64,000 nucleotides of DNA, from NCBI GenBank assembly GCA_963715865.1, contig OY970280.1, positions 960,001 to 1,024,000 on the forward strand, given 5' to 3'. The DNA comes from Candidatus Bathyarchaeota archaeon. GTDB taxonomy: Archaea; Thermoproteota; Bathyarchaeia; Bathyarchaeales; Bathycorpusculaceae. The position numbers and the translations under genes are program-made. Below, piece after piece: positions 10,742 through 50,290 of this stretch (the first letter of the stretch is position 1; every line of letters starts with the position of its first letter). Under the pieces are notes generated by a model. The model worked only from the letters and a program-made list of their open reading frames with translations, was not told the DNA's origin and made no database searches.

Positions 10742-10894
10742 CTACTTAATAATTAACGAATCTTCATTTAAACAGATTGCTGCTTTTGAAAACTCTCAGT
10801 AAACTATGGAACAGTATGAAATAAATTTTTTTCTGTTTGCAAAAGCCATGGAAAAGTAATTAAGCTTTTATGATAGTAATGGAATGGTGGAAAC

Positions 10895-11164: not shown

Positions 11165-11229
11165 CTCTCTTCAGCAATCAGCTCTGTTAAGCCGAAATTT
11201 CCAAGCAAGAGCCATTTTTAATATATTTT

Positions 11230-11247
11230 GTTGATGCTTTCGTATAC
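11230..11247 (+). repeat. 18-bp motif, copy 6 (1 mismatch)
   Basis: GTTGATGCTTTCGTATAC. Confidence 0.9.
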
Positions 11248-11304
11248 CACTCAAGGATAGGCTTATCTTTTAACCAGTAACAATAAAGTAATAAGGCATC
11301 AAAA

Positions 11305-14635: not shown

Positions 14636-15298
14636 TTAGGTAGAAAGCGGTTTGTATGGACTACAAGTCGAACCATGCTTTCTTGCCGCACGTATTGGGT
14701 CCATTAATTTCTTGTTTGCTAAAATTGCAAAGGTTTCAGAGTAGCTTTTTTCAAGTTTGAAAGACTTTAATGAGCCTTGGAGAACAGTACTGCCTTTGAG
14801 GATGTTATCCACGCGCATGGTCGAACCGTCAGGCATTATGATGTTCATTGCATGAACATAATTTCTTAGTTCATGAGTTTTCATGTGGGCAAAGTTTTTG
14901 ACTATTTGTTTCATTGCTTCTTGTATATCCTTTGGAATGGCTTGTAAGAATTGTTCGCTGATGCTTTTTCCGATTTCGCTGACTTGTATCCCGTTTTCAT
15001 CCTCAACTATGAGTTGCTCATCAAGCATTGCTTCGTAGTCATTGTAAAGACCCTTGCTAATCGGACCGTGATTATGCATGAAAAAATTATAACCGAAAGC
15101 TCTTTTTCCATCTTGATTAAGAGTGTACTCTATCAAGAATGCTAACTTTTGAAGTTTTGTGATTCCCAGCCACCCTCTCTTTTCGCTTGCTGAAACTAGA
15201 GCAAGCATAAGAACTGAGTTTCCACTAAATTCAGGTTTCTGGAAGCTGCTCATGTCACAGTTGACACTCCAATTTTTAGACCGTATCACCTTTGACAA
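14636..15298 (-). CDS. DUF4065 (SocA/Panacea) domain antitoxin-like protein
   Basis: GITKLQKLAFL...YNFFMHNHGPIS...Y signature; C-terminal ETFAILANKKLMDPIRAA. Confidence 0.75.
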   Translation of the reverse strand: MSKVIRSKNWSVNCDMSSFQKPEFSGNSVLMLALVSASEKRGWLGITKLQKLAFLIEYTLNQDGKRAFGYNFFMHNHGPISKGLYNDYEAMLDEQLIVEDENGIQVSEIGKSISEQFLQAIPKDIQEAMKQIVKNFAHMKTHELRNYVHAMNIIMPDGSTMRVDNILKGSTVLQGSLKSFKLEKSYSETFAILANKKLMDPIRAARKHGSTCSPYKPLST

Positions 15299-16293: not shown

Positions 16294-17685
16294 TTAATGT
16301 TGAAGCATAACGGCGCCCTTGCCTGGAGGAGATGCCCGCATGGTTACGGCGGCTGCCAGAGCTAAAGCCCATAACATGTCATCATGGCAATGTTGTGGAT
16401 GGCTGAACTGTAAGTGCCCGCTTTTGCCGTACTCGTACTGTTGCTCATTGATCTGCTGGCATAGTAACCTATGGTACGGAATGGCTAAGCGGTTCTGTTC
16501 CATAGCAATTTTCAGCCCTGTAAGCAGCTCCTCTTTTGATTGCATAGTAAACGTAATGCCGTCGACACTTCTCAAACCCTGGTTGTGAATCTCCTCAAGT
16601 ACAGGTTCACCCACGCCAGTCTGATCCACAAGCACGCCTCGGAACTGAAACTTCTGGTTAGCCCTCACAAGGTGACCAATAACCTGCGCGTATGGTGTTT
16701 CAAGCGGAAACTGATACATATAAACAAGCTTAAGCCTGTCGCCATCACGTTGCAAAACAACTACAACGCTGAAGTCTTGGAGCTTTCCGAAATCAACTCC
16801 GCCATAGTAATCTCCGCTTGGAAAAGAAGCCTCAAGACTGCTGTAAAGCTCAACGCCAAGCTTTTGGGCAAGCTCGACCGACGTGCGAATCAATGCTTGT
16901 GAAAAATAGCTGTTTAAGGCTTCAACAAACTCGGCTTCGTACTCCATTAGATATTCTTCATGGGTCATGTTTTCGCGGTTTTCATCCAAAATATGCTCCG
17001 TAACTAGCGGGCACTCACTTGACTTGACACGGTGCACACTATAGGCTGGATTGACGAATGCTCGATAGAAAAAGTGGTTTTTATCCCAAGGCGTGCTTAA
17101 TAGAATTGCGTAGCCATCGGTTGTGCTTAGCATCGGGAAAAGGATTTGCGTGATAACCTTTTCAGGAATCCAAGAGGCTTCATCCAAAATAATCATGTTT
17201 GCAGTGTAGCCGCGTAGCATGTGCTCTGAGCAGGGTAAGGCAATTATTTTGCTTCTGTTGTCAAACTGAATAAGCGTTCCCGTTGCCCTAACAATTCTAC
17301 TGCGGAGATATACACTATAGAACACAAATGACATTATGCGGTCAAACATAATCATTGACTGCCTAAGCGAAGGACTGGTAATTAAAACTGTAACACCCTT
17401 GTTTGCTTGGGCAAAGTAGATGGCTTTCAACGCTATGATTGTCGTCTTGCCAGTTTGACGCCCCATGCAAGCGACGATTCGCTTACTCGGATCTTCCAAC
17501 AGCACCGCCTGATATGGAAAAGGCTTCACATCCAAAATTTTCTCAGCAAAATCAACAGGCCCCTTGACTTCAAGAGTTTCCTGAAGCTGCAACTGCTTGA
17601 TTGCTTTATCGATTTGCGGAAGCCTTCTTAGCGCCCTACGCTGCCTGTAACTTCGCCATAGCAACGGTAACCGTATGCGCGTCAA
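16294..17685 (-). CDS. terL: Terminase large subunit (Terminase_6 ATPase + RNase H-like nuclease)
   Basis: PYQ...GRQTGKTT (Walker A), IILDEA (Walker B), LLSTP, GVDFGK..D, DQTGVG, HDDMLWALALA. Confidence 0.93.
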   Translation of the reverse strand: MTRIRLPLLWRSYRQRRALRRLPQIDKAIKQLQLQETLEVKGPVDFAEKILDVKPFPYQAVLLEDPSKRIVACMGRQTGKTTIIALKAIYFAQANKGVTVLITSPSLRQSMIMFDRIMSFVFYSVYLRSRIVRATGTLIQFDNRSKIIALPCSEHMLRGYTANMIILDEASWIPEKVITQILFPMLSTTDGYAILLSTPWDKNHFFYRAFVNPAYSVHRVKSSECPLVTEHILDENRENMTHEEYLMEYEAEFVEALNSYFSQALIRTSVELAQKLGVELYSSLEASFPSGDYYGGVDFGKLQDFSVVVVLQRDGDRLKLVYMYQFPLETPYAQVIGHLVRANQKFQFRGVLVDQTGVGEPVLEEIHNQGLRSVDGITFTMQSKEELLTGLKIAMEQNRLAIPYHRLLCQQINEQQYEYGKSGHLQFSHPQHCHDDMLWALALAAAVTMRASPPGKGAVMLQH

Positions 17686-17731: not shown

Positions 17732-18253
17732 CTACATCTTCTCTTTCAAACTAAGAAGCTGCTCTTCCCAAAGCTTGCGCTCTTGATCTGTTTGCGCTTT
17801 TGCAACCTTGTCTTCCAACTGGGCAAGCACAACCCTGTTCAACTCTTCAACATGCCGTTCAACCTTCGCAAGCTTCTCAATATAATCCGTCTGCAGTATG
17901 ATGTAGCTTTTCAATGCAGGTATGATCAAGCGTATTCGCTTAATATCTAGCCCAGTTAAACCCTTCTCATTTAATCGCTGAATGCATCCCAGCGTCATCT
18001 TTGCAGCTTCTTCCACACTGATCAATTGCTCAGCCGGTTTGATGGGTTCAAGCGTTGTAGTTGTTGATGATGAAGATGATGAACAATTGTTTTCCTTTTC
18101 AGAAATTACAAGACCTAGTCGATATAACTTGAGCCTGATACCCTCAGGGCTACGATGGAAATGTTCAGCCATCTCTTCGACGCTTTGACCCTGCCCACAC
18201 ATTTCACTTATAGCTTTAACTTCGTCTTCTGTCCAAAGTTTTTCAAGAACCAT
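17732..18253 (-). CDS. HTH + coiled-coil protein, putative terminase small subunit
   Basis: N-terminal WTEDE...EEMAEHFHRSPEGIRLKLYRLG HTH; lies directly upstream of TerL. Confidence 0.55.
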   Translation of the reverse strand: MVLEKLWTEDEVKAISEMCGQGQSVEEMAEHFHRSPEGIRLKLYRLGLVISEKENNCSSSSSSTTTTLEPIKPAEQLISVEEAAKMTLGCIQRLNEKGLTGLDIKRIRLIIPALKSYIILQTDYIEKLAKVERHVEELNRVVLAQLEDKVAKAQTDQERKLWEEQLLSLKEKM

Positions 18254-36828: not shown

Positions 36829-37236
36829 ATGCATGGGCGTTTCATGGCAAAAACTCAAGAAGTGTCTATGAGTCAGGAGTTACTGGATTCAATTTTTGAG
36901 GGTGCAAAACGACTTTACCCGAGGGAGACGATTTTGCTTCTTAGGGGTAAAAAGGCTAAAGATGCCCTTCGTATAGTTGACCTTGTGATTCCGCCGTTGG
37001 CGACTTATGGGCATGGGTTTGCTAATTACCCGCTTCATTTGTTGCCCATGGATTTCTCTCTGGTAGGCACCGTGCATTCGCATCCGTCAGGTAACAAAAC
37101 GCCTTCGGATGTGGATTTTAATCATTTCTTTGGACGAATCCTCATGATTGTAGGCTACCCTTATGCGAGCCAGCAGGATGTTGCTGTATATAATTCGCAT
37201 GGGGAAAAATTACCATTGCTGGTAACTAAGGAGTAA
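36829..37236 (+). CDS. JAMM/MPN+ (Mov34/PAD-1) metalloprotease; its 3' end is the integration site
   Basis: PRE...HSHPSG...PS..D JAMM motif. Confidence 0.93.
   Translation: MHGRFMAKTQEVSMSQELLDSIFEGAKRLYPRETILLLRGKKAKDALRIVDLVIPPLATYGHGFANYPLHLLPMDFSLVGTVHSHPSGNKTPSDVDFNHFFGRILMIVGYPYASQQDVAVYNSHGEKLPLLVTKE
37225..37236 (+). repeat. attL core ACTAAGGAGTAA
   Basis: Exact 12-bp direct repeat of 48603-48614; encodes T-K-E-stop of the JAMM gene. Confidence 0.85.
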
Positions 37237-37305
37237 GCCTATTTTAAACGCGGTTATCTAAACCTTTTTAAGCGACGGAGCCATATCAGTCTATTGGCGA
37301 GATAA

Positions 37306-38367
37306 ATGTTAAATCAGCAAGTCGAAAACTGGTTAAGCGAATGCAGAACCGCAAACACAGAACGACAATATCGAATAAGAATAACAAATTTTTTAAATTG
37401 GTATAATGGCACGGTTGAACAGTTCTTAGCCTTAACCCCGGCAGAGAAACGTAACGCTATTTTGAGGTTTCAAAACGCGCCTATACACAAATCCAAAAAC
37501 ACCGCTGGCTCTCATGTTGTCGCTATTCTATCCTTCTTGCGATCCGTTGATATGCCACTGGATTTAAGGGGAAAAAAACTTCGCTATCAAATGGATATTT
37601 CAAGCCACACCTTCACAAACGGCGACTTGCAAAAAATGTTTGAGGTAGCCGACATAAAAGGCAAGGCACTTTTAGCTTTAGCGACTTCGCTGGGCTGGGA
37701 GGTCAGCGCGGTTCTCGGCCTCAAACGTGCCTATGTGGAATCTTTAATAGCGAAGGCAAAAAGCGAAAACCAACAGTTCTATTATTTCCTTTCACAGCGG
37801 GAAAAGACTGGAGCGCCACGGTTAGGCGTCTTAAACCCGTTAGCGATTGAATGGCTCTCTAAATGGTTTATCGAAAGTGACCAATACCCAAAACGCAACC
37901 GCATAAAGAACCCTAAAAGAGACTATGGAAACAGCGACATATTCGACGTTAATGAAGCATCCGCAAACAAGATAGTACAGCGATTAGCAAGGAGAGCGCA
38001 TATAGTCACCACGGGCAGAGTGCGTTTTCACAAGATAAGAGGCTGGGTTATGAGCAATCTTAGCCGCGCAGGATTCAACGAGTTTCAGGTTAAGTTTTGT
38101 GTTGGTAAGGCTATTCAAGCAAGCGACATGACTTATCTAAATACTTTACAAGAGCAAATAGCAGAGCGTTACCCAGCAGCCTATAACGACTATTTAAGTT
38201 TACAAAGCACCGTTCCAGCAAAAGCCTTAGTTAAAATGAGCAAAGAAACCGAGGCTATCAAAGCAGATAACGCTGAGTTAAAGGCCAAGATTGCGAAGAT
38301 TGAAAATGACATGAAAGAGTTGCTTCTTAAAGTGGTCGCACAGGAACCAAAGCTTCCTGACGAATAA
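37306..38367 (+). CDS. Tyrosine recombinase/integrase with atypical active site
   Basis: Core-binding N-domain; ALLALATSLGWEVS (box I), REKT, FHKIR, VGK, TYL; C-terminal coiled coil. Confidence 0.85.
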   Translation: MLNQQVENWLSECRTANTERQYRIRITNFLNWYNGTVEQFLALTPAEKRNAILRFQNAPIHKSKNTAGSHVVAILSFLRSVDMPLDLRGKKLRYQMDISSHTFTNGDLQKMFEVADIKGKALLALATSLGWEVSAVLGLKRAYVESLIAKAKSENQQFYYFLSQREKTGAPRLGVLNPLAIEWLSKWFIESDQYPKRNRIKNPKRDYGNSDIFDVNEASANKIVQRLARRAHIVTTGRVRFHKIRGWVMSNLSRAGFNEFQVKFCVGKAIQASDMTYLNTLQEQIAERYPAAYNDYLSLQSTVPAKALVKMSKETEAIKADNAELKAKIAKIENDMKELLLKVVAQEPKLPDE

Positions 38368-38403
38368 GAGAAAGATTAAAAAAAGAAAAAAGCTATTGTT
38401 GCA

Positions 38404-39156
38404 CTAACATTTTTTCTGTTGGTCACAGTGTTTGCATACTTCAGCGATGTCGAGGTCTCCCAACTTCAAAATGTGTGGCCCTCGGTCTATTTTTGGCTGT
38501 TGTATTTGGTAACAGGATGGATATTCTTCTTCTTTCTCAATTTGATCGAGTGCTGATTTTGCTTCGTTTAGTTGTAAACCCATTTTTCCAGCCAACCAGT
38601 CGAGATAGTCCGCGATCTCATTCATCGAATATCCTTTCTCTTTTAAGTAAATTCCAGTGAGCCTTAATCCTCTATTGAAGCCGTCTTCAAATGTGCATGG
38701 GGAAAAGAGAGCTACGCATTTTTTCGGAGATTCTCTATGAACCCAGAAAAGCTCAGGTATCCACTTTGGTTGCTCTTCTATCTTTTTGCCACTAAGTTCT
38801 TCTACAGTTAATATTTTTGTTAAGGAGTCTCTTTCTTCCTGCGACATGAGTTTTTCTGCCATCCGTTGTACTTGCCTTCTGGCATCAGAACGTTGAACCA
38901 CTAAACCAAACTTCAATGTTGGATGGTTCTCCTTCAACAAATGAAAATGGAATAACTTTTCTTCATATCGAGCCTTGAGTTCGACTTCCCAAAGTATCTT
39001 TTCTTCGTTTTTCTCCCAACAAACATCTACTATAACTTTAGCCCTCTTAGGAATCTCAAAAGAAGGGTTTCCAATAACATAACCCTTTTCAATTCCTTGC
39101 TTCTTAAGCAAATCTGCTAACGTAGTATGCAAAGACACTATTTTCTTTTCTGGCAT
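38404..39156 (-). CDS. PD-(D/E)xK nuclease-like domain fused to a Cys-containing helical domain
   Basis: IVDVCW...LWEVELK in the N-half; C-half has YPSC...C..C...C. Confidence 0.5.
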   Translation of the reverse strand: MPEKKIVSLHTTLADLLKKQGIEKGYVIGNPSFEIPKRAKVIVDVCWEKNEEKILWEVELKARYEEKLFHFHLLKENHPTLKFGLVVQRSDARRQVQRMAEKLMSQEERDSLTKILTVEELSGKKIEEQPKWIPELFWVHRESPKKCVALFSPCTFEDGFNRGLRLTGIYLKEKGYSMNEIADYLDWLAGKMGLQLNEAKSALDQIEKEEEYPSCYQIQQPKIDRGPHILKLGDLDIAEVCKHCDQQKKC

Positions 39157-39168
39157 CTATTCACCTCC

Positions 39169-39696
39169 CTAAGAGCGCGCTGGCATTTTTCGAATGTAGT
39201 ATCTTGCCAGATCCGTTGTTTTTTCAAGTGGTTCTATGCCATGGCACATCCTGTCTAACATTTTTCGAAGCCTGCTTATCCCCATTTTTGAGATTTTAAT
39301 GGGAAGGCAGTGGTAGTCATATTTTACTATTATGCCATCCACTGAGTCTATCAGTTCCCTATTCTTTTCAATGTTGTCTCGCTTTTGTTTGTAACTCGTA
39401 AACCATTCATGTATTTTTTGATTTGAGATTTTATCGATGCACACATTGCCGACCTTAGACGTCTTTCCGCTACTATCGGCAACTACATAAATATCTTTGA
39501 TTCTTTCGTGACCACATACTTGACAATTAAGAAATACTTCTGAACGATAATGGTCAACGAGTCGGTAACTTTCACCTTCATACTGGAATTCGCCAACGGC
39601 CTTTATGTATTCTGGAATACTTGCATCCAATTCGCTCAAAACTTCGTCAGTTTTTGATATAATGTTCAATCGTTTCTTCAAACCTGTTTTACTCAT
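39169..39696 (-). CDS. MGE-type zinc-finger protein
   Basis: CQVCGH.RIK.IYVV......KVGNVC pattern. Confidence 0.6.
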   Translation of the reverse strand: MSKTGLKKRLNIISKTDEVLSELDASIPEYIKAVGEFQYEGESYRLVDHYRSEVFLNCQVCGHERIKDIYVVADSSGKTSKVGNVCIDKISNQKIHEWFTSYKQKRDNIEKNRELIDSVDGIIVKYDYHCLPIKISKMGISRLRKMLDRMCHGIEPLEKTTDLARYYIRKMPARS

Positions 39697-41758
39697 TTTT
39701 CGAAGATTCCTCCTCTTCCATCAACTCAGCCAACGTCTTTTTGCGATTCTCTGCGTTAACATCATCAGACGAAATTAGTGCATCTACAGCCTTTTGCTCG
39801 TTAGACGCGTTTTCGGAGTTATTTTCTGGTTCTAACGCTGATTCTTCCTTAGAAACTATTACCACCAAGGGGTCGCTTTGCACCCTATCATTTTTATTAT
39901 TTTCTATTGAAGGATTAGATAGGGTTAGATTAGATTGTATAGATATATTATTTTCGCCAACTTTATTTTTACTATCAGGTGGTAATAGTTTAGAAGAGAC
40001 TTCACTGTTAAATTCAGAGTGCGCGTCCATAATCATTTTATCAAATTCTTCTTCAGTTATCGGTGTTTCAGTTTTATCAATGAAATTAATTTTTGATAGG
40101 GCGTAAGTGACACCCCTGGTGGTAATTGTTTCTTTCCATGTTTTGAAGTCCTTTATCAATTTCGCCTTTAAATCAGGGTTAATTGGCAAATTGGCTCTAA
40201 GTGCACTAATTTCAGTTTGAATCTCCGAATTTGACGCATTTTTTAACGGGTAATATGTTAATTCTCGACTGTCAGATTGTTCGTCTTCGCGTATGTCAAC
40301 CCAGCCTAAATCGCATAGTCTTTCTAAATATCGTCTTGCTGTTTTTCTTGACGGCGCTTTGGTTGTTGGTGTCTTTTCGCCTTCATAATTCATGGTAGGA
40401 TTGTTTTTGTCGTAGATGTGATTTACAATTGTCTTTAAGGTTGCGCCGTTAACGTGGTGTTCAACGTATTCATGGTAAAACGTTAATGTGCGCTTATCCG
40501 TGTTTGTCTGTGTGGTTTCGTAAATGAACTTGAAGTGTTTTTCTGCGTTTATGAAGTCTTGAACTGTAGCTACAAAGAATTTTTCGCCTTCTATGGTGAA
40601 AATAGGACGCTGGAATAGTGACAGGATCGGTTTTGCAGATAGGAGTTGTTGAAAATGTTCGAAGTCTCGCATGTCTCTTACTTCTAATCCGCCTATTAAC
40701 TCGTCGCAGTTGGGGAAGGGATTAATGAATTTTAGGTCATACTTTTTGATTGTATCGCGTATATTTCGAATCAAGGCTTTAAACAATATTTTGTCTTGGG
40801 ATGGTTTGGATTCCCAGGGGTAAGATCGTTTAGTCGCGATTGTTTTTTTGCCAGCTCGGATTTTAGCTTCATTGGTGTCTGGAGTGTCTGAAATTACTCT
40901 GGTTGCAAATTCCGAATAGTAATATTCGTCGATGCTACAGAAAATGAAGGCTGGTGCACCTTCAAGAACTACAACATGAACGTGGCCGTGCTCATCGACA
41001 AATTTATGTGTAATTCGGGGGCCGTCATGCGACATAGTGCTTTTTAACATCGCTAAGGTTTCTTTTGGTACAGTTTCTAAGAGAATGTAGATTTTGCCAG
41101 TGAATTTTATTAGGTCGAATGCTGCTTTAACTTTTTTGTCCCATTTAGGTTTTTCAATTTTGTAAACGTCTAATGCGTCTTGGTATTCTTCTTTCCCATC
41201 ATAATTTTTGGGTTTTGGCGCGTGCGGTGCATCATCCATGTTTAATGGTTCCTCTTCGCCGTTCTCATTGATTGTCATAAGTTCGCCCTGTTCATGAGTA
41301 ATAACTTTAGGGCTTTGCGAAGCGACCGTTATTATGTCTTCTTCCGGGAAATACGCGAAGACTGCTGTGGTATCATAGGTTTTTCCGCTTCCGCTTTCGG
41401 TGCTCTTGTGGCTAACTGAGAAGGGATCAACATAGGCGCTTAGCCCAGCCGCTTTATTGTCCTCGATAACCGCGTCATCAAACTTAACTGTTCTATGAAT
41501 ATCTGCATTAAATCGTTCTTCAATTTTTGGGTCATAAGCTAATTGTTCCAGCGAGCTTTTCAGTTCCAGTGGTACATGAAAGCTTTCAAGGCATTGCGTG
41601 TTGAGTAGGTTTTGCATGATTTCTTTTCCTTTAGCGCGGCATTCAGGGCAAAGAAGCTTGCCTGTTGGTGTTTCGCGCGTGACATCTAAACTTGATATGC
41701 CGCAGGCTTCGCATGTCTGCTCGATTTTTCGGAATCGTAAAAATTTAGGGAATTTCAT
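39689..41758 (-). CDS. Putative replication ATPase/helicase (Zn finger + AAA+ P-loop + wHTH)
   Basis: CEAC...CPEC; ESGSGKT Walker A; GAPAFIFCS...EFATR; RD finger; C-terminal TARRYLERLCDLGWV wing. Confidence 0.7.
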   Translation of the reverse strand: MKFPKFLRFRKIEQTCEACGISSLDVTRETPTGKLLCPECRAKGKEIMQNLLNTQCLESFHVPLELKSSLEQLAYDPKIEERFNADIHRTVKFDDAVIEDNKAAGLSAYVDPFSVSHKSTESGSGKTYDTTAVFAYFPEEDIITVASQSPKVITHEQGELMTINENGEEEPLNMDDAPHAPKPKNYDGKEEYQDALDVYKIEKPKWDKKVKAAFDLIKFTGKIYILLETVPKETLAMLKSTMSHDGPRITHKFVDEHGHVHVVVLEGAPAFIFCSIDEYYYSEFATRVISDTPDTNEAKIRAGKKTIATKRSYPWESKPSQDKILFKALIRNIRDTIKKYDLKFINPFPNCDELIGGLEVRDMRDFEHFQQLLSAKPILSLFQRPIFTIEGEKFFVATVQDFINAEKHFKFIYETTQTNTDKRTLTFYHEYVEHHVNGATLKTIVNHIYDKNNPTMNYEGEKTPTTKAPSRKTARRYLERLCDLGWVDIREDEQSDSRELTYYPLKNASNSEIQTEISALRANLPINPDLKAKLIKDFKTWKETITTRGVTYALSKINFIDKTETPITEEEFDKMIMDAHSEFNSEVSSKLLPPDSKNKVGENNISIQSNLTLSNPSIENNKNDRVQSDPLVVIVSKEESALEPENNSENASNEQKAVDALISSDDVNAENRKKTLAELMEEEESSKNE

Positions 41759-41868
41759 TGTGGAATCACTTCAAGCGCTTTTAACCGCGCTTCAATTTTG
41801 TCGAAAACCAGGTTCATTTCACGAATAAGGTCACGGATTGTAAATTCTTCACTTTTTGGGTTCATCAT
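41755..41868 (-). CDS. 37-aa coiled-coil peptide coupled to the ATPase gene
   Basis: Manual translation MMNPKSEEFTIRDLIREMNLVFDKIEARLKALEVIPQ; ATGA overlap. Confidence 0.4.
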   Translation of the reverse strand: MMNPKSEEFTIRDLIREMNLVFDKIEARLKALEVIPQ

Positions 41869-42169
41869 GCAAATCAACTTTTTTCATTTTTTCCCTCCAA
41901 GCTCCATCTTCCAGCTTCGTTTTTTGGTTTGCATGTTCGTCGTAACCGAAAGAGCGTTTGCATCGACCATATTTATAGTTTTCCAACTTTTTCTAATTTC
42001 TAATTTTATTTCTACCGTTTATTTTCCCCAATTTTAAAAAAACTAAAAGGGCAACCTTAGAGCCTTAGTCGGCAGTCTTACGAAATCCAAAATCCAGCGC
42101 TTTTTGGGCAAAGTCAATGAAATTCCAAAGATCGCAAGACCGCTATCGACGGGGTTTGAGTTGCATAGG

Positions 42170-42445
42170 CTTTTCTGGCGCTCCTGAGGTGAGTCAAGGT
42201 TATCCAGACGCTGAAACGCGGAAATTAGACGAATAGATGAAACCGCGCTCAGTGCTCGCGCGAACTCTGAGACGCTGGAACAGCGCATTCGGAGCCTAAG
42301 CGCGCTTAGAGCGCTACGTGTGGTAAATAAGCCTGAGTGTTCCGAAGAGGCCTACTTACCACACGCTGACTGGACGGTTGGAGAATTCATGGCAAGCCAA
42401 CCGGCGCACAAGTGGAGGAGAATCAAGGCTTGTGCTATGTCAGTT
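42170..42445 (-). ncRNA. Candidate structured non-coding RNA or ssDNA structure
   Basis: 17-bp stem (42317-42365) that pairs fully on the minus strand with 2 G-U pairs and has C(UUCG)G in its loop; adjacent three-stem junction 42366-42443; 14-bp palindrome 42296-42309. Confidence 0.55.
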
Positions 42446-42605
42446 TAATGTCTGTAATGGTTTGCGTGGAGGGCTTCTTTGAAAGGGCAGTGAATTGTGG
42501 TTCTTGACGGTGCATGGTAAAGCGCTGTATTGTCGCACGTTTCGGAAAAACTGATACCAGTTTGTTGTGGTCTTTCTGGCTCTTCCGCGTTGTCGGTCTG
42601 TCATG

Positions 42606-43304
42606 CTATCGCCTGCTCTTTGCGTGATAAATGGGGCCTAGCGTAGTGGTTCCGTCTGGTTGTGGTGTTGGAAGTCCGCCGCCTATTTCAAAGTCGTCAG
42701 AGTTCACGATTTTCAGGTTGCCACGCGAGTCTGTTGTCAGCAGTGCTTTGTCGAGCGGTACATCGGGACTCAATGCGCCGACGAGGTGCGTTCCTTTGGT
42801 TAAGTTAGGAACGACTCCGCTTAGGTGTGGCGCGATTTTCTCCAGTTCTGCCTCAATCGCGTTGAACGCGGCAAGCCTTTTATCGAACTTTGCCATTTTC
42901 ATCTCTAAACATTCTCTGAGTGCGCGCTGTTCACCTAATAATTGCGCAAGCCCCAAAGCTTCAACCGCGACAACGTTGGTTCTACCTCTTAGATGGAGGT
43001 CGAGTTTTTCCATCAGATCGCATTCTATACTTAACGCGGCAGTGACTAACTTTGAGGTTTCAATGTTCGCTTTTAGCTCTTCCGTAAATTGTGTCATAGT
43101 AGCTTTCCACCATTTCCCGACGGTAATTTCGCTATCTAAATTGGCGAATTGCTTTGCTGCACTGGGAGTATTGGATGTTATGACTTGATGAGTCGGGAAG
43201 TCTCGCTGAAGCATTTCATAGGCCTTTTCCAATATAGCGTAAGCGTTCCGCACGTCTGCGTCTGCGTCAAACATTTTCAAGTTATTAAAAGTTTCAAGTT
43301 TCAT
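42606..43304 (-). CDS. Hypothetical helical protein
   Basis: 232 aa with a GAGGTGA Shine-Dalgarno upstream. Confidence 0.8.
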   Translation of the reverse strand: MKLETFNNLKMFDADADVRNAYAILEKAYEMLQRDFPTHQVITSNTPSAAKQFANLDSEITVGKWWKATMTQFTEELKANIETSKLVTAALSIECDLMEKLDLHLRGRTNVVAVEALGLAQLLGEQRALRECLEMKMAKFDKRLAAFNAIEAELEKIAPHLSGVVPNLTKGTHLVGALSPDVPLDKALLTTDSRGNLKIVNSDDFEIGGGLPTPQPDGTTTLGPIYHAKSRR

Positions 43305-43319
43305 GTTTTTTCACCTCTA

Positions 43320-43706
43320 TTAAAGCCATATCGTATTTTTTTCTTGTACCGTTAAAACTTTTAGTCGCCAATCTGAGCATGGAGCGCCGTTATGAATAAA
43401 AGCTGGCGAACCAAGTTTGCAGCGCTCGCGCTTTGTATCATTCATGAGACAGGTAAATTCTACTTGATCGTAAGGCGCGTACATTTTAATGCGCCAGTCG
43501 TCTGGGTTAGCCATTACCGCGCTTTGCGACAATTCGACACGGTGAATGTGATCGCATGAACGGCAGCATCCGGGCATTTGGCACTTTTCGCATGGCGGTG
43601 AACAGGCGGGTTTAGGCAATTCTGCAACTTCGGATTCTGAAGGTTTCTTAGGTTGATTAGTTTGTTCTTGCATAATTTTTTTCTTCCTACGAAATGGATT
43701 TTTCAT
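43320..43706 (-). CDS. Cys-rich putative metal-binding protein
   Basis: CSPPCEKCQMPGCCRSCDH...C...C...CSDW. Confidence 0.7.
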   Translation of the reverse strand: MKNPFRRKKKIMQEQTNQPKKPSESEVAELPKPACSPPCEKCQMPGCCRSCDHIHRVELSQSAVMANPDDWRIKMYAPYDQVEFTCLMNDTKRERCKLGSPAFIHNGAPCSDWRLKVLTVQEKNTIWL

Positions 43707-43847
43707 TTACTTTCAACTCTCGGGTTTCGTTCATTCCAAGCTGTTCTGGCTGACCGAAACATTCCATTATGACTTTTTCAAACGCGCGGATGCGCTTGGT
43801 GTGGCTGGAGATATTGCATCTTGTTTTCTCTTTTTTAGAAACTTTGC

Positions 43848-44159
43848 TCATTTTTCGTTCTCCTCTGCTTCTGGATACTTTGGATATTTGTTTATTGTTT
43901 GGGCAATCCGCAAAACCACGACCACGACTCCGTGTTTAATAGCGCAATCAAAAAGTGACATTGCCAAAACGGAGTCAGAAAGACCTATGACGCTTTCAGT
44001 TAATGCGAAGTGTTTAATTGGAAAACCGAGCAGTTTTTTGGCGTCGCGGTAGAATGCCTGCCTTCCTTTCCCATTAGCCGCAAAATCGTAATCCACAATG
44101 TAATACTCTGTGTGTGCGCCTAATTCCTGAATTTTTCGCATAAAAATGACCTTACTCAT
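43848..44159 (-). CDS. Cas2/VapD-like small ferredoxin-fold protein
   Basis: YYIVDYDF....GRQAFYR..KKLLG......TESVI resembles the Cas2 pattern hhhhYDh...R...h.K.L..hG...Q.SVF. Confidence 0.5.
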   Translation of the reverse strand: MSKVIFMRKIQELGAHTEYYIVDYDFAANGKGRQAFYRDAKKLLGFPIKHFALTESVIGLSDSVLAMSLFDCAIKHGVVVVVLRIAQTINKYPKYPEAEENEK

Positions 44160-44184
44160 TTTCTTTCACATTTCACTTTTTCAT

Positions 44185-44406
44185 TTATGTGATTAAAGGA
44201 TTTTTTACGCTTGGAACAAGTTGTTTAAGATCGGAGAAAGCTATTTTGTAGAGAATCTGATGATGGCATTCGGGGCATTCAAAAGTCATTATAATTAAGG
44301 GGTCTTTGCCGACGTTTATGACTTCAGCTTTAACGGTTTTCAGCAGAACCTCAGATTTTTTATGTACACAGAAGAAATGTTGCTGATTCATCAATGCCTG
44401 CGCCAT
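44185..44406 (-). CDS. Small zinc-ribbon protein
   Basis: FFCVH...FECPECH. Confidence 0.65.
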   Translation of the reverse strand: MAQALMNQQHFFCVHKKSEVLLKTVKAEVINVGKDPLIIMTFECPECHHQILYKIAFSDLKQLVPSVKNPLIT

Positions 44407-44437
44407 TAACTTCGCCTCCGTTTTAATTCACTCATTC

Positions 44438-46165
44438 TTATTTGCCTCCGCGATAAAGTTTCTGTTGCGCAAACGCTTGCGATAAAGCCGTGACTAAAGG
44501 AGTTTCAAGACCGTTTATGATTGCTTGTGTTAAAGCATTTGTGAAATCCTGCAAACTTGCGTTAACTCCTAAACTTGCAATGCTAATTGTGGGGTTAACA
44601 GTGATTTGGAAAGTGTTTTCGTTTGTTACGGAGCCACCGCCACTTTCAGCCGTTGTTGCTAATGGAGTTACTGTGCCGACGTTGCTTAATGCTTCGCCAA
44701 GATTTTCGTTTAACGGCATAACAGCTTCTGGGCCAGATTCGCCAACCATTGCCAATGTTGGTTGAGTCACTACAGCGCCCCCTGCTAAGCCAATAGCGCT
44801 AAAAGCACCACCGATAGCTGATCCAACACCACCAAGCGCACTTCCAATGGTTCCGAAAAAGCCAGCGATTGGCTTCAACACTGTATTATAAACTGTTTCC
44901 AACGCGTCAAAAACAGGTTTAATCAATATATTGTATGCCGAACTGAGACCACTTGAAAGAGTGTTCCACGCAGCAAGCAATGTATCAACAATGAATGTTC
45001 CAAGCGGCGCTAAAACGTCGTTCCAAACCAATGTAAGCGCATCTTTAACGTCGTTTACGGCTGTTTGAATAAGGCCCCAAGCAACTTCGAAGGGTTTAAG
45101 GTACAGGTTAACCCAAACTTCTCCGATAAATTTGCCCAATGGAACAAGCACGTTATTCCATAAGAATGTTAATGCGCCTTCAATATCATCCAACGCAGTT
45201 TTTAATGCTCCTCCTAACACCGAACCAATCTCATTTATTGCATCGCGGAAAGGCGCGCAGTTCTGGTATGCTTCATAGATTCCAACTGCTAAGAGAGCGA
45301 TGCCAGTGATTACAAGAATGATGGGGTTTGCGGCGAGAAAATCCATTGCTCCCGAAATACCCTCAATCCCGCCAGACACGGCTGAACTGATGCCTGGAAA
45401 AGCTGTCATAAGTGTGGACATACCTGCAAATACGCTGGTAACAGCGGGGATGACGCTTACGCCAGTCATCATGAAGTCGTTGTTTAAGTTGCGTTGACCT
45501 TCAGTGACTCGTTCATTCGCAACCGTTAACGCGTCCTGCGCTGCACTAAGCTTACTCGCCGCTAAGGTTGCCTGCGGACTATCTGCTCCATACTTCGCGA
45601 CGGCTGTATTGTACGCATTTTGCGCCGACGTAACCGCATTAGTATCTCTCTCAACTGTAACATGAGCCTTGTCCAGGCTAACTTGCGCGTTTTCGATGTT
45701 GCTTACGCCCATGACAAGCATCGCGCCTGAAGATGCTAATTGCCCAACCGCTCCTACCTGTCGCAAAGTGCTGGCAGACGCCGCGTCAGTGGCTGAAACT
45801 GTTTGTCCCTGAGCGTTTACAGTCGTGGTTGCACTGGTTAAATTCGCGTTTGCAACATTTTCCGTCGCGGTTTGTGCTCCACTTAAGCTGCTGTTCACGT
45901 TCACCATTGAACTTTCGACATTTTGACTCACTGTGGCTGCAGTACTGCTAATCTGGTTTAGACTTTGATCAATATTTTCACTTGCTGTAGAAAATGCATT
46001 TTCGACGGAGGAAGCGGCATTTTCCATGCCACTTTCAAAAGTGGTCATTGGGGTACTGACATCTTCGATGCTGCCGCTTAATCCGCTTAATGCACTTTCC
46101 ATTCCACTAATCGCGCTGCTAACCTGATCTGATAATGTGAATTGGAATTGAACTGGAAAACTCAA
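44438..46165 (-). CDS. Phage tail tape-measure protein (575 aa)
   Basis: N-terminal ...TLSDQVS, Ala/Ser coiled coils, KYGADSPQA, amphipathic ~11-residue W/F repeats (LTFLWNNVLVPLG...LTLVWNDVLAPLG), C-terminal LAGGAVVTQPTLAMVGESGPEAVMPL; TTG start after GGAGG. Confidence 0.85.
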   Translation of the reverse strand: MSFPVQFQFTLSDQVSSAISGMESALSGLSGSIEDVSTPMTTFESGMENAASSVENAFSTASENIDQSLNQISSTAATVSQNVESSMVNVNSSLSGAQTATENVANANLTSATTTVNAQGQTVSATDAASASTLRQVGAVGQLASSGAMLVMGVSNIENAQVSLDKAHVTVERDTNAVTSAQNAYNTAVAKYGADSPQATLAASKLSAAQDALTVANERVTEGQRNLNNDFMMTGVSVIPAVTSVFAGMSTLMTAFPGISSAVSGGIEGISGAMDFLAANPIILVITGIALLAVGIYEAYQNCAPFRDAINEIGSVLGGALKTALDDIEGALTFLWNNVLVPLGKFIGEVWVNLYLKPFEVAWGLIQTAVNDVKDALTLVWNDVLAPLGTFIVDTLLAAWNTLSSGLSSAYNILIKPVFDALETVYNTVLKPIAGFFGTIGSALGGVGSAIGGAFSAIGLAGGAVVTQPTLAMVGESGPEAVMPLNENLGEALSNVGTVTPLATTAESGGGSVTNENTFQITVNPTISIASLGVNASLQDFTNALTQAIINGLETPLVTALSQAFAQQKLYRGGK

Positions 46166-46167
46166 TT

Positions 46168-46341
46168 TTAAGCCTCCGATGCTTTTTCAATAATTAGCCG
46201 TTCATTGTCGATGCGGACTAAAATTTTAGTGGGTAGTTTAGGAAACGGAAAACTTGAATCTGACATGACACAAGATGGAATGTACACGATCCCAGTTTTC
46301 GCGCATGGATGCGCTATTAATCTTCCGACGCTTTCACGCAT
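46168..46341 (-). CDS. 57-aa AbrB/SpoVT-like DNA-binding protein
   Basis: Manual translation MRESVGRLIAHPCAKTGIVYIPSCVMSDSSFPFPKLPTKILVRIDNERLIIEKASEA; its 3' end contains the tape-measure SD. Confidence 0.65.
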   Translation of the reverse strand: MRESVGRLIAHPCAKTGIVYIPSCVMSDSSFPFPKLPTKILVRIDNERLIIEKASEA

Positions 46342-46394
46342 TTTTCGGTCTCTCTTTTTTCTTGCCTATGTTCCAGAGACCGTTCCACGCTATG

Positions 46395-46635
46395 CGCGAA
46401 AGCGACCTATTTCCAAGTTTTCCTTAGAGAGCATTGGAGCTTTAAGTCACTGAGTGCTTGTCGGGTCTTACACGCGAGCTGGGGTGATACTCCTTCCGTC
46501 TCGCCGAAGCTCAGGATACAGTTCCTTCCACTACGCAGAGCCCTGTGACTCCAGTATGGACTATGGACGGTGCCGCACGTCCTCGGCTTACGGTTGCTCC
46601 GTTGCTCCCATTACTAAGGCGAAAGTGAAGTAAAG
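46395..46635. ncRNA. Second candidate structured non-coding region
   Basis: GC-richer than its flanks with no credible ORF; CGC-GAAA-GCG, GAGCT/AGCTC, GGACG/CGTCC and TTACT..GC-GAAA-GT..AGTAA stems. Confidence 0.4.
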
Positions 46636-46803
46636 CAAATTTGGCTTCATGCTTAGCTTCGCATTATTAGGCTTGATTTCAATGTTTGTTTGGCTATTCC
46701 GCCTTAGCAGATTTAGTATTGTTGCGCCTGCTTAAAAACTTTACGCATTTTTAGCATAAATAATATTAAAAGTAACTTTTTTATCAATAAATTGAATAGA
46801 ATA

Positions 46804-46860
46804 AAATACTAACATATAAGTTAGTATTTGTTTGAAATATTAACATATAAGTTAGTATTT
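46804..46860. promoter_or_regulatory. Tandem 26-bp dyads AAATA(C/T)TAAC-ATATAA-GTTAGTATTT (31-bp period) in an AT-rich tract; operator or origin
   Basis: Copies at 46804-46829 and 46835-46860. Confidence 0.8.
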
Positions 46861-47114
46861 GTGATATGTTAAGATTTGTCAGTTAACTAACCACGTTTTT
46901 AAAAGGCCGCGCTAATCGCAAGAATCACAAGATAAATTCTCGCCACAGATTGACTTATCCCATCTATTTCTTAATAGGATCGCTGAGAATCGCTTTAAAC
47001 ACTGGATTGACTGAGAAAAAGTGAGTTGTTACCCTACCCTAAACAATGCAGAAAAGCGACTCAGCAACATAGGCGTTTGCTAAAATACAAAAAAAAGAAG
47101 GGTTATTAGACTTT

Positions 47115-47243
47115 TCATTTGTCTTGTTGACGAAGCTCTTGTAGAAGAAGAGAAGAAACGTAATCCGTGATTGATAATCCATTACGTTTTGCTCTATCTT
47201 CTATCGCGGCAAACGCTTCTTTACTAACTCTTAATTTCTTCAT
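47115..47243 (-). CDS. 42-aa ribbon-helix-helix (CopG-like) protein
   Basis: Manual translation MKKLRVSKEAFAAIEDRAKRNGLSITDYVSSLLLQELRQQDK; SD GAGGTGA. Confidence 0.75.
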   Translation of the reverse strand: MKKLRVSKEAFAAIEDRAKRNGLSITDYVSSLLLQELRQQDK

Positions 47244-47381
47244 TCAATCACCTCTTTTTTTCCACGCTATTATCTGCGGGCAGTCACTTTCACACCCTGA
47301 GTAATAACATTCTGGTGTTTCGCTATCTTGATCAATTTCATGAGCAGTTTTATTTTTAGGTTTCTTGGTTGTTTTTTGCAT
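47244..47381 (-). CDS. 45-aa hypothetical protein
   Basis: Manual translation MQKTTKKPK...ECYYSGCESDCPQIIAWKKRGD; tightly coupled to its neighbours. Confidence 0.5.
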   Translation of the reverse strand: MQKTTKKPKNKTAHEIDQDSETPECYYSGCESDCPQIIAWKKRGD

Positions 47382-47566
47382 TAAGGCACTGCTCCGTTTT
47401 TGATTGGATGGGTTTTCATGTACTCGGTTAAGGCCTGCACTGTTTCCTCTGAAACTTTGTAGGTTGAGCCCGTTTTTCTATGAACGTAAAGTGTCCATTC
47501 GAGCCAGAACTTGTCGTCTATGTTTAAGCTTGTTCTTTTCTTTGTCATAGATTGCATATTTACCAC
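47381..47566 (-). CDS. Ribbon-helix-helix protein
   Basis: KRTSLNIDDKFW.EW...V.......VSE....AL.EYM. Confidence 0.7.
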   Translation of the reverse strand: MVNMQSMTKKRTSLNIDDKFWLEWTLYVHRKTGSTYKVSEETVQALTEYMKTHPIKNGAVP

Positions 47567-47647
47567 GTTACTTTACTTAATGCTTTCGTCCCTATTAAAC
47601 ATTACCACATTAACACATTAACACAATGTTTATTAATTACCACGTTA
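47560..47647. promoter_or_regulatory. Four TTA(C/A)CAC(G/A)TTA boxes between divergent operons
   Basis: At 47560, 47602, 47610 and 47637. Confidence 0.7.
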
Positions 47648-47859
47648 TTACGTTATTATTTGAGGAAAGCGAAATGTGGAATCAAACAAACTTGGATGGA
47701 AAAATTTTAGAACTCCCTACGGAGCTCCAATCAGTTTGCTGCGAAATTTGTTATAACGCAACCGAGGAAAAATGCGATTGTAAGTGCCACGGCGCCTTTC
47801 ACGGTCTCGGCAACTTGAACAAGAAAACAGAAACTGAGAAAATGCGCGAGGGATTTTAA
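47626..47859 (+). CDS. Cys/His-rich zinc-finger protein (probable start at MWNQ)
   Basis: C..C.NA....CDC.C.G.FHG motif typical of MGE proteins. Confidence 0.7.
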   Translation: MFINYHVITLLFEESEMWNQTNLDGKILELPTELQSVCCEICYNATEEKCDCKCHGAFHGLGNLNKKTETEKMREGF

Positions 47860-47860
47860 G

Positions 47861-48196
47861 ATGGAAGTCGTAATGAACCGCACTAAGGAACATTGGCTTT
47901 TCACTTGGACGCCTACTGGCACCGTTAAAACTTACTTTGTCAGCGAAGGACACATTAACGTGCAATGCCTACCCGGCGAGAAAGAGTTAACCAACCAACT
48001 GTTCAACGCATTGTACGCTGGAGTGCCCGTTCACGTTCACGGCGCCTATGACAAGGAAACTCACATCCTCACGATTAAGCCTGCCGAACGCGATGAAAAT
48101 GCGCCAGTCCCCACGCAAACGCCGCAACAGCGCGACCGCGCCACAGACGACTATTTCAAGTGGCAAGAAGAACACCTCAAAAACCTATGCGTGTAA
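47861..48196 (+). CDS. Hypothetical protein
   Basis: 111 aa, operon-like spacing. Confidence 0.7.
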   Translation: MEVVMNRTKEHWLFTWTPTGTVKTYFVSEGHINVQCLPGEKELTNQLFNALYAGVPVHVHGAYDKETHILTIKPAERDENAPVPTQTPQQRDRATDDYFKWQEEHLKNLCV

Positions 48197-48232
48197 TCCG
48201 CAATATTCAAGAAGTTAGGAGTCGTATAGGAG

Positions 48233-48484
48233 GTGAAAAGTGTGAGTGAAAAATTTGAGTATGAACAAGTAACTATCAAAGTGCCTAAGCAAATAATGGC
48301 TTTTCTGCGCTTCCAAGCTGGACAGCACGATGTCCAGGTAACGGAAGAAATAGAAGGCTGTGTGCTTGACGATGTGCGAGGTCTAATGGAAGGTATGGAG
48401 GGAGAAGAATTGATTGGTTTTCTCGGGATGGACACTATTTTCTATGAGCTATTAGACGACCAAAACTATAAGCCAAAAGGCTAA
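48233..48484 (+). CDS. RHH-like small protein
   Basis: VTIKVPKQIMAFL N-terminus; SD GGAGGTGA. Confidence 0.65.
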   Translation: MKSVSEKFEYEQVTIKVPKQIMAFLRFQAGQHDVQVTEEIEGCVLDDVRGLMEGMEGEELIGFLGMDTIFYELLDDQNYKPKG

Positions 48485-48602
48485 AAGCAACAGATTAAAC
48501 CTTCAATATCTCTTTTTTTTATTTTTCAAATATGCCTACCGGGAGGGGTCTTTTTTCCAGACAGACAAACTAAAAATCAATAACCGTCTTTTATTTAAGT
48601 TT

Positions 48603-48614
48603 ACTAAGGAGTAA
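48603..48614 (+). repeat. attR core ACTAAGGAGTAA
   Basis: Exact repeat of 37225-37236, within the dyad TTACT-AAGG-AGTAA. Confidence 0.85.
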
Positions 48615-48624
48615 CCGCTCTTCA

Positions 48625-48969
48625 CTAAGCGCATAGGGCTTTGTAGGCTTCGATAAATTCCATGGCAAATTTGTCAGCGTATTTCTCTGTGCCTCTATGC
48701 ATTTTATCCACCGCTTTGCTGCGCAGGTGATGATAAAACTCGTGTAGAATAACGAAGGGGTTCACCATCACGTCACTATTTAGCACTGAAATGGTTTCAT
48801 TTTTAGATGTATAACAACCGAACGCTTTCATCTTGTGCCCTTTTGGTAAACCAACTTTCAGTTTGGGAACATTCACTTTGTAATTTTTCGCCAGTAAAGT
48901 GAGCGCTTCTTCCGGTTTTCCATTGAGAATAAACCAGACCACTAGTGGTTTGAAGTTGTCCTGCGTCAT
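48625..48969 (-). CDS. Small HExxH zincin-like protein
   Basis: FVILHEFYHHL. Confidence 0.75.
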   Translation of the reverse strand: MTQDNFKPLVVWFILNGKPEEALTLLAKNYKVNVPKLKVGLPKGHKMKAFGCYTSKNETISVLNSDVMVNPFVILHEFYHHLRSKAVDKMHRGTEKYADKFAMEFIEAYKALCA

Positions 48970-49039: not shown

Positions 49040-50290
49040 TTACTCGCCGTAAGTGCCTCTTCTAATCTTCTCAGCCAACAAATGGATGAACTCAATCGGC
49101 CAAACATCATCACAAACATCGTCCGTCAATATGTTGCGTTGATGATACATGGAAATTAAATCATTTTTTAGTAGAAGTATTAGAAGGAATTTGTGGCCAT
49201 AAGTTCTTTTGAACAGCGCATATTTGCGAGCTTGCCTTTTAGTCATTTCAAAGTGGGGTTCAAGGATTATTTTTCTTCCTTGAAGTGTCTTTTCTAATAT
49301 AAAATCTGGGGTGTAAATTTCGTTGTTTGGCAAAGGGAAGCTAATCGTTTCATAACCATATGGAATGTGCATCCTCAAAAGGGTGAGGGCGGTTTTTTTC
49401 TCCCATCCGCTCTTGTAGCGGCTCATTTTTTGGTAATAAGCTTGGGACTGCCCAGTTATTTTTTGCATGCGATCAAGAAAATCAAGTGCTGTTTTCAACG
49501 TGTAGCGGTTTAAGGTTTTTTGTTTAAGCCATCTGCCCAAGAGGAAAAAGGGAGAATCTACCTTCGCAGGGTCTTGTGGGAAAAGTCGTTTTGCAAAGTC
49601 AGTTATTTTTTGCCGTGCATCTGCTGCGGTGCGTTCGTCTCTCCACAGCGATGGCGAAGCTGAGTTTATTACACCCAAGCTTGCAGCAACATTAGCGTTT
49701 TCCTTGGTCAATGGAACGTAGAGGTCTTCTGGCAAAAGATGGTCGTAGATTTGCAGGTCAGGTAGAGGTCTCACCATCCACCGCATATAAATCCACGCCT
49801 TGTCTATGTGCGGTCCGCTAAGCGCTTTGATGTTTTGTGCAATGTCCTCGATGAAATCCTTAGGCTTACTAAATCTTTGGGCGTACTTTAGCAGGTTTTT
49901 TTCTTCATTAGTCTTCACAAATAAGTTAACAGACGCCAAGATTTCGGATGCCGCTTTTTTGTTTGGACCTAAATCGTAATAAAAATCGGATTTTACGATT
50001 TCTTCTTCGAAAATATGCGCTTTTTTTATTTCGAAAAGGCTGTTGCCAAAGGCTTCATGTAGATATGCTAGTAGCATTCGTGCGTTTTCAGGGTAACCTA
50101 CAACTGTATCATCAAGTATAGATGCAGCCAGTAGAAAGTAGTGCGCTATAGTTTTCCGCTCTTCATACTTTTCCGAGTACGGGTTAAAGAGCAACCGTGG
50201 ACTCATACGTCGGTCCCATTGGATGTCAACAACGTTGGAATTCTTGTTAATGAAGTCAACAAGTAAAGTTAGCACTTCATCGGTTGCCAT
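49040..50290 (-). CDS. DUF2400 (TIGR02757)-like HhH domain fused to a T7 endonuclease I-like PD-(D/E)xK domain
   Basis: KAWIYMRWMVRP.PDL...VPL...LG...FP.DPAKVD.P.F.LG, then YKSGWEK...YE.......YTPDF.....ILEPH. Confidence 0.7.
   Translation of the reverse strand: MATDEVLTLLVDFINKNSNVVDIQWDRRMSPRLLFNPYSEKYEERKTIAHYFLLAASILDDTVVGYPENARMLLAYLHEAFGNSLFEIKKAHIFEEEIVKSDFYYDLGPNKKAASEILASVNLFVKTNEEKNLLKYAQRFSKPKDFIEDIAQNIKALSGPHIDKAWIYMRWMVRPLPDLQIYDHLLPEDLYVPLTKENANVAASLGVINSASPSLWRDERTAADARQKITDFAKRLFPQDPAKVDSPFFLLGRWLKQKTLNRYTLKTALDFLDRMQKITGQSQAYYQKMSRYKSGWEKKTALTLLRMHIPYGYETISFPLPNNEIYTPDFILEKTLQGRKIILEPHFEMTKRQARKYALFKRTYGHKFLLILLLKNDLISMYHQRNILTDDVCDDVWPIEFIHLLAEKIRRGTYGE

Follow-up and report, generated by a model that had tools for sequence, protein, structure and literature searches.

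The 64,000-nucleotide stretch of a Candidatus Bathyarchaeota genome analysed here (the window; GCA_963715865.1, contig OY970280.1, positions 960,001 to 1,024,000) carries an 11.4-kb integrated element on which a complete tape measure protein (TMP) gene stands alone among recognisable virion genes. The element is a discrete insertion, its TMP is conserved, and the same arrangement recurs in related elements. The TMP is that of Bathyarchaeia siphovirus-like viruses; the element has captured it, keeps it intact and carries a small zinc-ribbon (Zn-ribbon) gene beside it. Together with its sister islands, the element is a candidate for the first satellites of archaeal tailed viruses. We tentatively favour the reading that it is a satellite-like element supplying its own TMP to the tails of a helper virus, which we hold to be plausible if somewhat short of probable. 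A preliminary description of this DNA had claimed a complete 575-aa TMP with a good Shine-Dalgarno (SD) sequence, an att-bounded element of 11.4 kb and the absence of any other recognisable virion gene or its debris, and these claims held up in the analyses below.

The TMP gene lies on the reverse strand at 44438-46165 and starts with TTG, with GGAGG 7 nt 5' of the start codon. Directly upstream is a 57-aa open reading frame (ORF) without Pfam match (46168..46341, -), whose stop is 2 nt before the TMP start. Tape-measure families phrog_1535, 991, 58 and 1272 of PHROGs matched the 575-aa product at E 2e-14 to 7e-10; the top single PHROG match was phrog_971 (E 1.8e-16), annotated as endolysin, and searches of Pfam and NCBIfam gave no direct TMP match. 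A search of 5.8 billion proteins returned ~90 TMP homologues of 400-590 aa at 35-50% identity, and PF10145 is present in a few longer relatives, such as P0058 and P0079. The homologues sit within tail modules of full Bathyarchaeia head-tailed (pro)viruses at ~80 loci, among them 23 of the 28 TMP loci in GTDB Bathyarchaeia genomes and all 54 of the 54 loci from IMG/VR. Clustering of every ORF of the fetched loci gave a virus gene order of terminase, portal-like gene, PF25209 capsid, HK97-gp10-like gene, three small tail genes and TMP, followed 3' by a 130-aa gene and a large Laminin_G gene or by an alternative pair. A chaperone-like gene, the TMP and a distal-tail-like gene followed one another in all but five of ~85 related loci. 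Since the homologues hold a fixed place in the virus gene order, the family is the tape measure of a Bathyarchaeia siphovirus-like group.

The window protein combines homology to TMP families with the full length, conserved ends and central hydrophobic segments (residues 231-249 and 272-290) of a siphovirus-type TMP; its gene has no chaperone and no distal-tail or hub neighbours. Both the N- and the C-terminal regions could be aligned to viral TMPs, and the C-terminal 55 aa were ~50% identical to viral C-termini. Relaxed selection had been named in the preliminary description as an outcome that would count against it. Among 26 viral TMPs, 52 columns reach a conservation of 85% or more; the window TMP retains 46 of these (88%), a share within the 0.81-1.0 obtained for the viral TMPs by leave-one-out. 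Compared with the TMPs of the Bathyarchaeia head-tailed proviruses L002, L003 and L103, identity was 45-50% overall and 55-73% in the core, with the C-terminal domain and the hydrophobic centre conserved; pairwise divergence of TMPs is saturated at 40-50% amino-acid identity. Viral TMP genes lie between chaperone-like and distal-tail-like genes in genomes of 30-40 kb, whereas the window TMP is alone on its 11.4-kb element. It is also longer than viral TMPs by 80-95 aa, chiefly at the N-terminus, and N-terminal extensions were likewise seen in two of the sister islands described below (L008 and L010).

The insertion spans 37237-48614 (11,378 bp). The 12-bp sequence ACTAAGGAGTAA occurs as the attL core at 37225..37236 and as the attR core at 48603..48614, an exact repeat with 11,378-bp spacing, and was the sole long-range repeat with suitable spacing; judged on length alone, it does not exceed what chance would give. 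The left copy makes up the last four codons (stop included) of a host JAMM/Prok-JAB gene (36829..37236, +; Pfam PF14464, E 2.8e-9) that has orthologues in 18 relatives. An empty site was found in 12 same-genus genomes, where the JAMM gene and a host HExxH-motif gene (48625..48969, -, in the window) are convergent and 24-65 bp apart, versus 11.39 kb in this genome. In the closest relative, the empty site was collinear with the flanks when these were joined at the repeat. The empty sites and the collinear rejoined flanks indicate that 37237-48614 is a discrete insertion, recent within the genus. A tRNA-Ser or tRNA-Val as att site was ruled out, the insertion lying at the 3' end of the JAMM gene, and the Rfam scan of the element found the flanking tRNA-Ser only. 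Just outside the element and adjoining the tRNA-Val is a gene for a 416-aa protein (49040-50290, -) with DUF2400 (Pfam E 1e-8, residues 158-250) and a C-terminal endonuclease or Holliday-junction-resolvase-like region (phrog_945, E 1e-9).

Scans with Pfam, PHROGs and NCBIfam found no capsid, portal, terminase, tube, chaperone or baseplate gene in the element, whether as ORF or as debris, no match to a terminase small subunit and no recognisable capsid-size factor. BLASTP and tblastx against ~110 related loci matched the TMP, a replication-type ATPase (Rep), the Zn-ribbon gene and a ribbon-helix-helix (RHH)-like regulator gene, and no second virion gene. In hhalign comparisons of all element ORFs with 28 local virus gene clusters, every probability was <=5%, and no chaperone-like, tube-like or distal-tail match emerged. 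Small ORFs with two transmembrane segments, candidates for spindle-shaped or pleomorphic virus capsids, were absent from the element. Sensitivity for tiny or novel structural proteins was limited because the element's ORFs have no relatives from which profiles could be built. The TMP was the sole virion homologue, with no complete virion module, and the small ORFs, which might by the earlier account have hidden capsid or tail proteins, gave no such match in Pfam, PHROGs, NCBIfam or hhalign.

These negatives bear on whether the element is a deletion derivative of a full tailed provirus, which the preliminary description had listed among the outcomes contrary to it. Most homologous TMPs do sit in full proviruses. 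Yet the element and the virus loci have the TMP in common and no second gene or pseudogene fragment, no backbone shared with full proviruses was found, the insertion ends are clean, and integrase and Rep place it in a separate family, that of small integrase-plus-Rep elements. We rejected the deletion origin, which we regard as very improbable.

The integrase (37306..38367, +) is a divergent tyrosine recombinase of 353 aa. It matched archaeal XerA of NCBIfam (E 2.5e-4) over the full model, below the curated cut-off, and had no Pfam match; the HxxR...Y motif is visible in its translation. Rep (39689..41758, -) has 689 aa and the Walker A motif GSGKT. Its nearest protein-atlas clusters (score 0.97) were Bathyarchaeota and virus families, of whose members ~10% carry PF27228, and lower-ranked clusters were helicase-like; these are signatures of plasmid-type replication and helicase. 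Homologues of this Rep (Rep-689) were present in 11 of 300 sampled Bathyarchaeia genomes. At all seven loci that were fetched, the Rep homologue adjoined an integrase homologue, and at none of the seven was there a TMP. The TMP cassette occurs on at least two backbones, Rep-689 in the window element and a D5-like one in islands L010 and L016, and is absent from most members of both. The existence of Rep-plus-integrase elements without a TMP suggests that the TMP is an acquired cassette on a plasmid-like backbone; it looks like an acquired accessory module, not the relic of a decayed virus.

A genome search for TMP elements without head genes, akin to a check proposed in the preliminary description, yielded four further islands without capsid or terminase genes (L008, L010, L015 and L016), which are ~8-13 kb long and bordered by cellular genes. 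A PF00589 integrase was found in L010, L015 and L016, and a D5_N/DUF5906/Pox_D5 primase-helicase in L010 and L016. In the window element, L010, L015 and L016, a gene for a CxxC protein of 73-82 aa lies directly 3' of the TMP; the window copy (73 aa, Zn-ribbon-like; 44185..44406, -; BLASTP E 9e-11) is immediately downstream of the TMP gene. Its alignment has 11 invariant columns, it was not seen in any provirus, and its database matches were confined to the small elements. A complex prediction of the TMP with the 73-aa Zn-ribbon protein gave no verdict either way (score 0.00). Viral-conserved TMP columns were retained at 87% in L015, 81% in L016, 75% in L010 and 71% in L008, and the small-element TMPs measured 575, 582, 566 and 517-537 aa versus 480-497 aa in the four nearest viral TMPs.

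In the maximum-likelihood tree, the TMPs of the four sister islands formed a clade (UFBoot 98 / SH-aLRT 99) with end branches of 0.43-0.79. Such long end branches within a supported clade indicate that the TMP-without-head arrangement has been kept through long divergence. The window TMP shared a nine-row group (86/93) with TMPs of viral origin, from L002/P0004, L003 and P0009. A 31-row tree had united all five small-element TMPs (82/81), a grouping that was lost on adding P0009 and P0004.

Among the islands, L008 alone has chaperone-like and gp10-like neighbours of the TMP. The TMP at L008 9513-12301 has on its flanks an HK97-gp10-like gene (Pfam E 4e-7) and, after the TMP where the viruses have it before, a homologue of their chaperone-like gene, so that this island has a fuller partial tail set than the other four. 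The L016 TMP looks truncated because it is frameshifted at ~11420-11630, with its conserved C-terminal domain in another frame, and the TMP of provirus L023 (~9700-11400), from the same metagenome-assembled genome (MAG), is likewise split by a frameshift. Both frameshifts are possibly long-read assembly errors or real disruptions.

The Zn-ribbon partner is one of the points that could be read as a repurposing of the protein in the membrane, for a non-tail role in transfer of element DNA, vesicle formation or exclusion of viral DNA. The gene is conserved and absent from viruses, the TMP has its two hydrophobic segments, N-terminal extensions occur in the window element, L008 and L010, and the element's own genome lacks helper tail genes. 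Against such a role, conserved columns specific to tails are kept at viral levels, as is the C-terminal domain, and Pfam, PHROGs and NCBIfam revealed no recognisable transfer machinery in the element. We consider this role quite unlikely.

Nor do we think it at all likely that the TMP is inert cargo, acquired through recombination with a virus infecting the same cell, and not yet decayed. This would agree with the orphan virus genes scattered elsewhere in the genome, with the place of the window TMP, which is not firmly inside the small-element clade, and with the state of the sister elements, two of which retain 71-75% of viral columns while L016 is frameshifted. Speaking against it are all 575 codons with an SD sequence and a coupled upstream ORF, 88% of the viral-conserved columns, and a pairing of TMP and Zn-ribbon gene that persists on different backbones and across long branches.

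The preliminary description had proposed that the element replaces a helper's TMP to build its own tails or poisons helper tail assembly in defence. The comparative findings support a proposal of this kind, none of the contrary outcomes it had named was found, and the mechanism itself we infer. As in a satellite, the element is small and site-specifically integrated and has its own integrase and replication genes. In the satellite reading, a helper of the L002, L003 or L103 type would infect the cell or be induced, and the element TMP would take the place of the helper TMP in tail assembly. Tube, chaperone, distal-tail, head and packaging proteins would come from the helper, and the element would be transferred in chimeric-tailed particles, as in the PLEs of Vibrio. 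Helper dependence, tail incorporation, packaging and a change of tail length are what we infer from this scheme; at ~0.15 nm per residue, tails would be ~5-15 nm longer (TMPs of 517-582 aa in the window element and three of its relatives versus 480-497 aa in the nearest viral ones). Pairs of small elements and potential helpers do occur together elsewhere: one MAG (MFD05377.bin.2.168) holds L016 and the full provirus L023 with a matching tail module, and L010 and provirus L103 came from the same sample.

Several results weigh against the satellite reading, the first being that no helper was found for this genome. The genome (2.35 Mb, one contig, C1) encodes a single TMP of this family. It holds two related proviruses, at ~564-598 kb and ~1680-1716 kb (loci L039-L043), which have terminase, portal-like, capsid and adaptor genes in common with the TMP-bearing virus group; both lack the set of tube, chaperone, TMP and distal-tail genes. 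With no compatible resident helper evident, any helper would be exogenous. No cos- or pac-like DNA common to the element and the related viruses or resident proviruses was found beyond coding homology, in a comparison that a short cos or pac site could escape, and neither a packaging signal nor a small terminase matching a helper was detected. The element also lacks the terminase small subunit and capsid-size factor that were sought in the library scans, and hhalign (<=5%) found no chaperone or hub gene of the kind that PLEs have. The supported TMP clade contains the four sister TMPs only, and monophyly of all five was neither rejected nor shown (approximately unbiased test, p 0.22). The known elements number five, and every one of them comes from a MAG, not from a virome contig; the selection used for IMG/VR would exclude capsid-less elements. 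Finally, several orphan virus genes are scattered in the genome, including terminase, capsid-like and other fragments, which means that lone virion genes are not rare here.

The missing helper and packaging functions are also what a defence decoy would lead one to expect. Here the TMP would co-assemble with the tail proteins of an invading virus and block or spoil tail assembly, which would protect both the element and its host lineage, and the element would stay unpackaged. A virus-derived TMP that is both intact and conserved, carried by a backbone of non-viral kind, fits this, and blocking of virion or tail assembly as a defence is documented in bacteria (PMC10884400; Rta of PLE11, 10.1101/2025.01.29.635557). 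A decoy would have no need of full length and both conserved ends, and in PLE, the one studied case, the satellite TMP serves transfer and not defence. We judge the decoy unlikely.

In a bolder form of the satellite reading, no satellites of archaeal head-tailed viruses would have been known before the five islands, and no known tail hijacker would be more minimal. A portable cassette of TMP and Zn-ribbon gene, moving between unrelated integrase and replicase backbones, would suffice, and the Zn-ribbon protein would select the satellite TMP over that of the helper. This is possible, and on balance we expect it to be wrong.

In the two resident proviruses, a ~322-333-aa protein follows the gp10-like gene, then one of 537 or 1210 aa, and a phrog_290 minor-tail protein is encoded just before the gp10-like gene. 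These proviruses join a head module to a different tail type. A 22-nt exact match was noted between window 47143-47164 and C1:1686845-1686866 in a provirus region. As a cos or operator site it was rejected, because it lies inside the 42-aa RHH-like coding sequence in both the window element and L015; coding homology is likelier. A simple repeat-spacing scan found no CRISPR array in the genome, so that no spacer link between host and helper could be drawn; the sole candidate, C1:1685174-1685580, is a 33-bp tandem repeat array.

The remaining genes of the element are small. The preliminary description had the TMP flanked by small regulators, and this stood for one gene, the 42-aa RHH-like regulator at 47115..47243 (-). 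It is conserved with L015 (BLASTN 74% over 100 nt), and the RHH assignment was made by reading only; the other small ORFs mostly had no family match at all. Between integrase and Rep lie a 250-aa ORF (38404..39156, -) without match in Pfam, PHROGs or NCBIfam and a 175-aa Cys-motif ORF (39169..39696, -) with a weak match only, to phrog_2319 of unknown function (E 1.6e-4). Further along are a 232-aa ORFan predicted to be mostly long helices (42606..43304, -), without homologue in the search of 5.8 billion proteins or match in the protein atlas, a 128-aa Cys-rich ORF (43320..43706, -) that matched L008 7818-8306 (BLASTP E 4e-8), and a 103-aa ORF (43848..44159, -) without family match in the three libraries. 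AlphaFold2 models of the 232-aa ORF (pLDDT 44) and the 103-aa ORF (pLDDT 48) were too poor for fold searches. Two near-identical 28-nt palindromic repeats, 31 nt apart, occupy 46804..46862 in a non-coding tract of ~1 kb.

An 83-aa ORF (48233..48484, +) is common to L010 and L016, as indicated by BLASTP (E 1.5e-10), clustering and BLASTN. A DNA copy of it, 77% identical, was found in the same genome outside the window, at C1:926429-926652. The copy lies in a region with several integrase homologues (C1:933-943 kb) and may mark another small element without TMP.

Outside the element, the window contains an intact orphan large terminase gene (16294-17685, -; 463 aa, Pfam Terminase_6N and Terminase_6C), whose product is ~71% identical to a terminase of the same Bathyarchaeia virus group. 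A 173-aa HTH_38 protein is encoded upstream (17732-18253, -) and a SocA/Panacea-domain protein nearby (14636-15298, -), amid the cellular genes YjeF, methyltransferase and LysE. A second orphan terminase copy was located at C1:503391-504554. The 16294-17685 region may be another island with a single virion gene.

If the satellite reading is true, tail hijacking by TMP substitution, reported from Vibrio in 2025, arose independently in archaea, and TMP substitution can work without a chaperone or hub of the satellite's own. Its simple genomic signature, by which such elements could be found, would consist of an integrase, a replicase and a TMP standing alone but for a small Zn-ribbon gene. Elements of this kind escape virus-prediction pipelines, and with them the ecology of Bathyarchaeia, which are a major lineage of sediment and peat, would gain a further level of parasitism. 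If instead the decoy is true, the element would be an archaeal defence aimed at tail assembly.

Bacteria are well known to harbour satellites of tailed viruses. Satellite P4 has ~11.6 kb and its helper P2 ~33 kb. P4 resembles the window element in size class, in having an integrase and a primase-helicase-type replication protein and in lacking virion genes of its own, and the D5-like primase-helicase of islands L010 and L016 adds to the likeness. P4 differs in that it changes capsid size through Sid, uses the helper tail unaltered and carries the helper cos site; a site of that kind was not found in the window element. A closer parallel concerns the TMP itself, and here the statement in the preliminary description that no such system had been described is outdated, as both Vibrio PLEs (10.1101/2025.01.29.635557) and the EPIP satellites of Mycolicibacterium aichiense (PMC12822802) encode TMPs. 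EPIP particles have longer tails (PMC12822802). The same source lists small terminase, adaptor, stopper, scaffold and capsid-related genes for EPIPs, and yet also describes them as without capsid proteins (PMC12822802). EPIPs are like the window element as satellites that encode a TMP, and differ by their serine integrase and by the terminase, adaptor, stopper, scaffold and capsid-related genes, of which the window element has none.

All Vibrio cholerae PLEs encode a chaperone and a TMP, and the PLE TMP replaces that of ICP1 in chimeric tails (bioRxiv 10.1101/2025.01.29.635557). In the same work, PLE11 virions contained the TMP and hub of PLE11 and not those of ICP1, the tail lengths of PLE and ICP1 differed as predicted from TMP size, and deletion of tmp cut PLE transduction by 96-99.9% (10.1101/2025.01.29.635557). 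Like the window element, PLEs are small, integrated and without capsid genes and have their own TMP, which is homologous to, yet divergent from, that of the helper and is needed for transfer. Unlike it, they are bacterial, have a contractile-tailed helper and encode a tail assembly chaperone, a baseplate hub and a capsid-size scaffold. The partial tail pathway of chaperone, TMP and hub is reduced in the window element to a TMP with an unrelated Zn-ribbon gene, in an archaeal host.

By the account of 10.1101/2025.02.15.638363, the satellites so far described in Archaea all belong to spindle-shaped viruses: pSSVx/pSSVi and the haloarchaeal SRCEs, each a plasmid backbone that has captured one or two virion genes. 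They share with the window element a plasmid-derived replication backbone and an acquired virion gene of a helper, and differ in that their helpers are spindle-shaped and the captured gene encodes a capsid protein or an ATPase. Set beside these systems, an archaeal, TMP-only version would be new.

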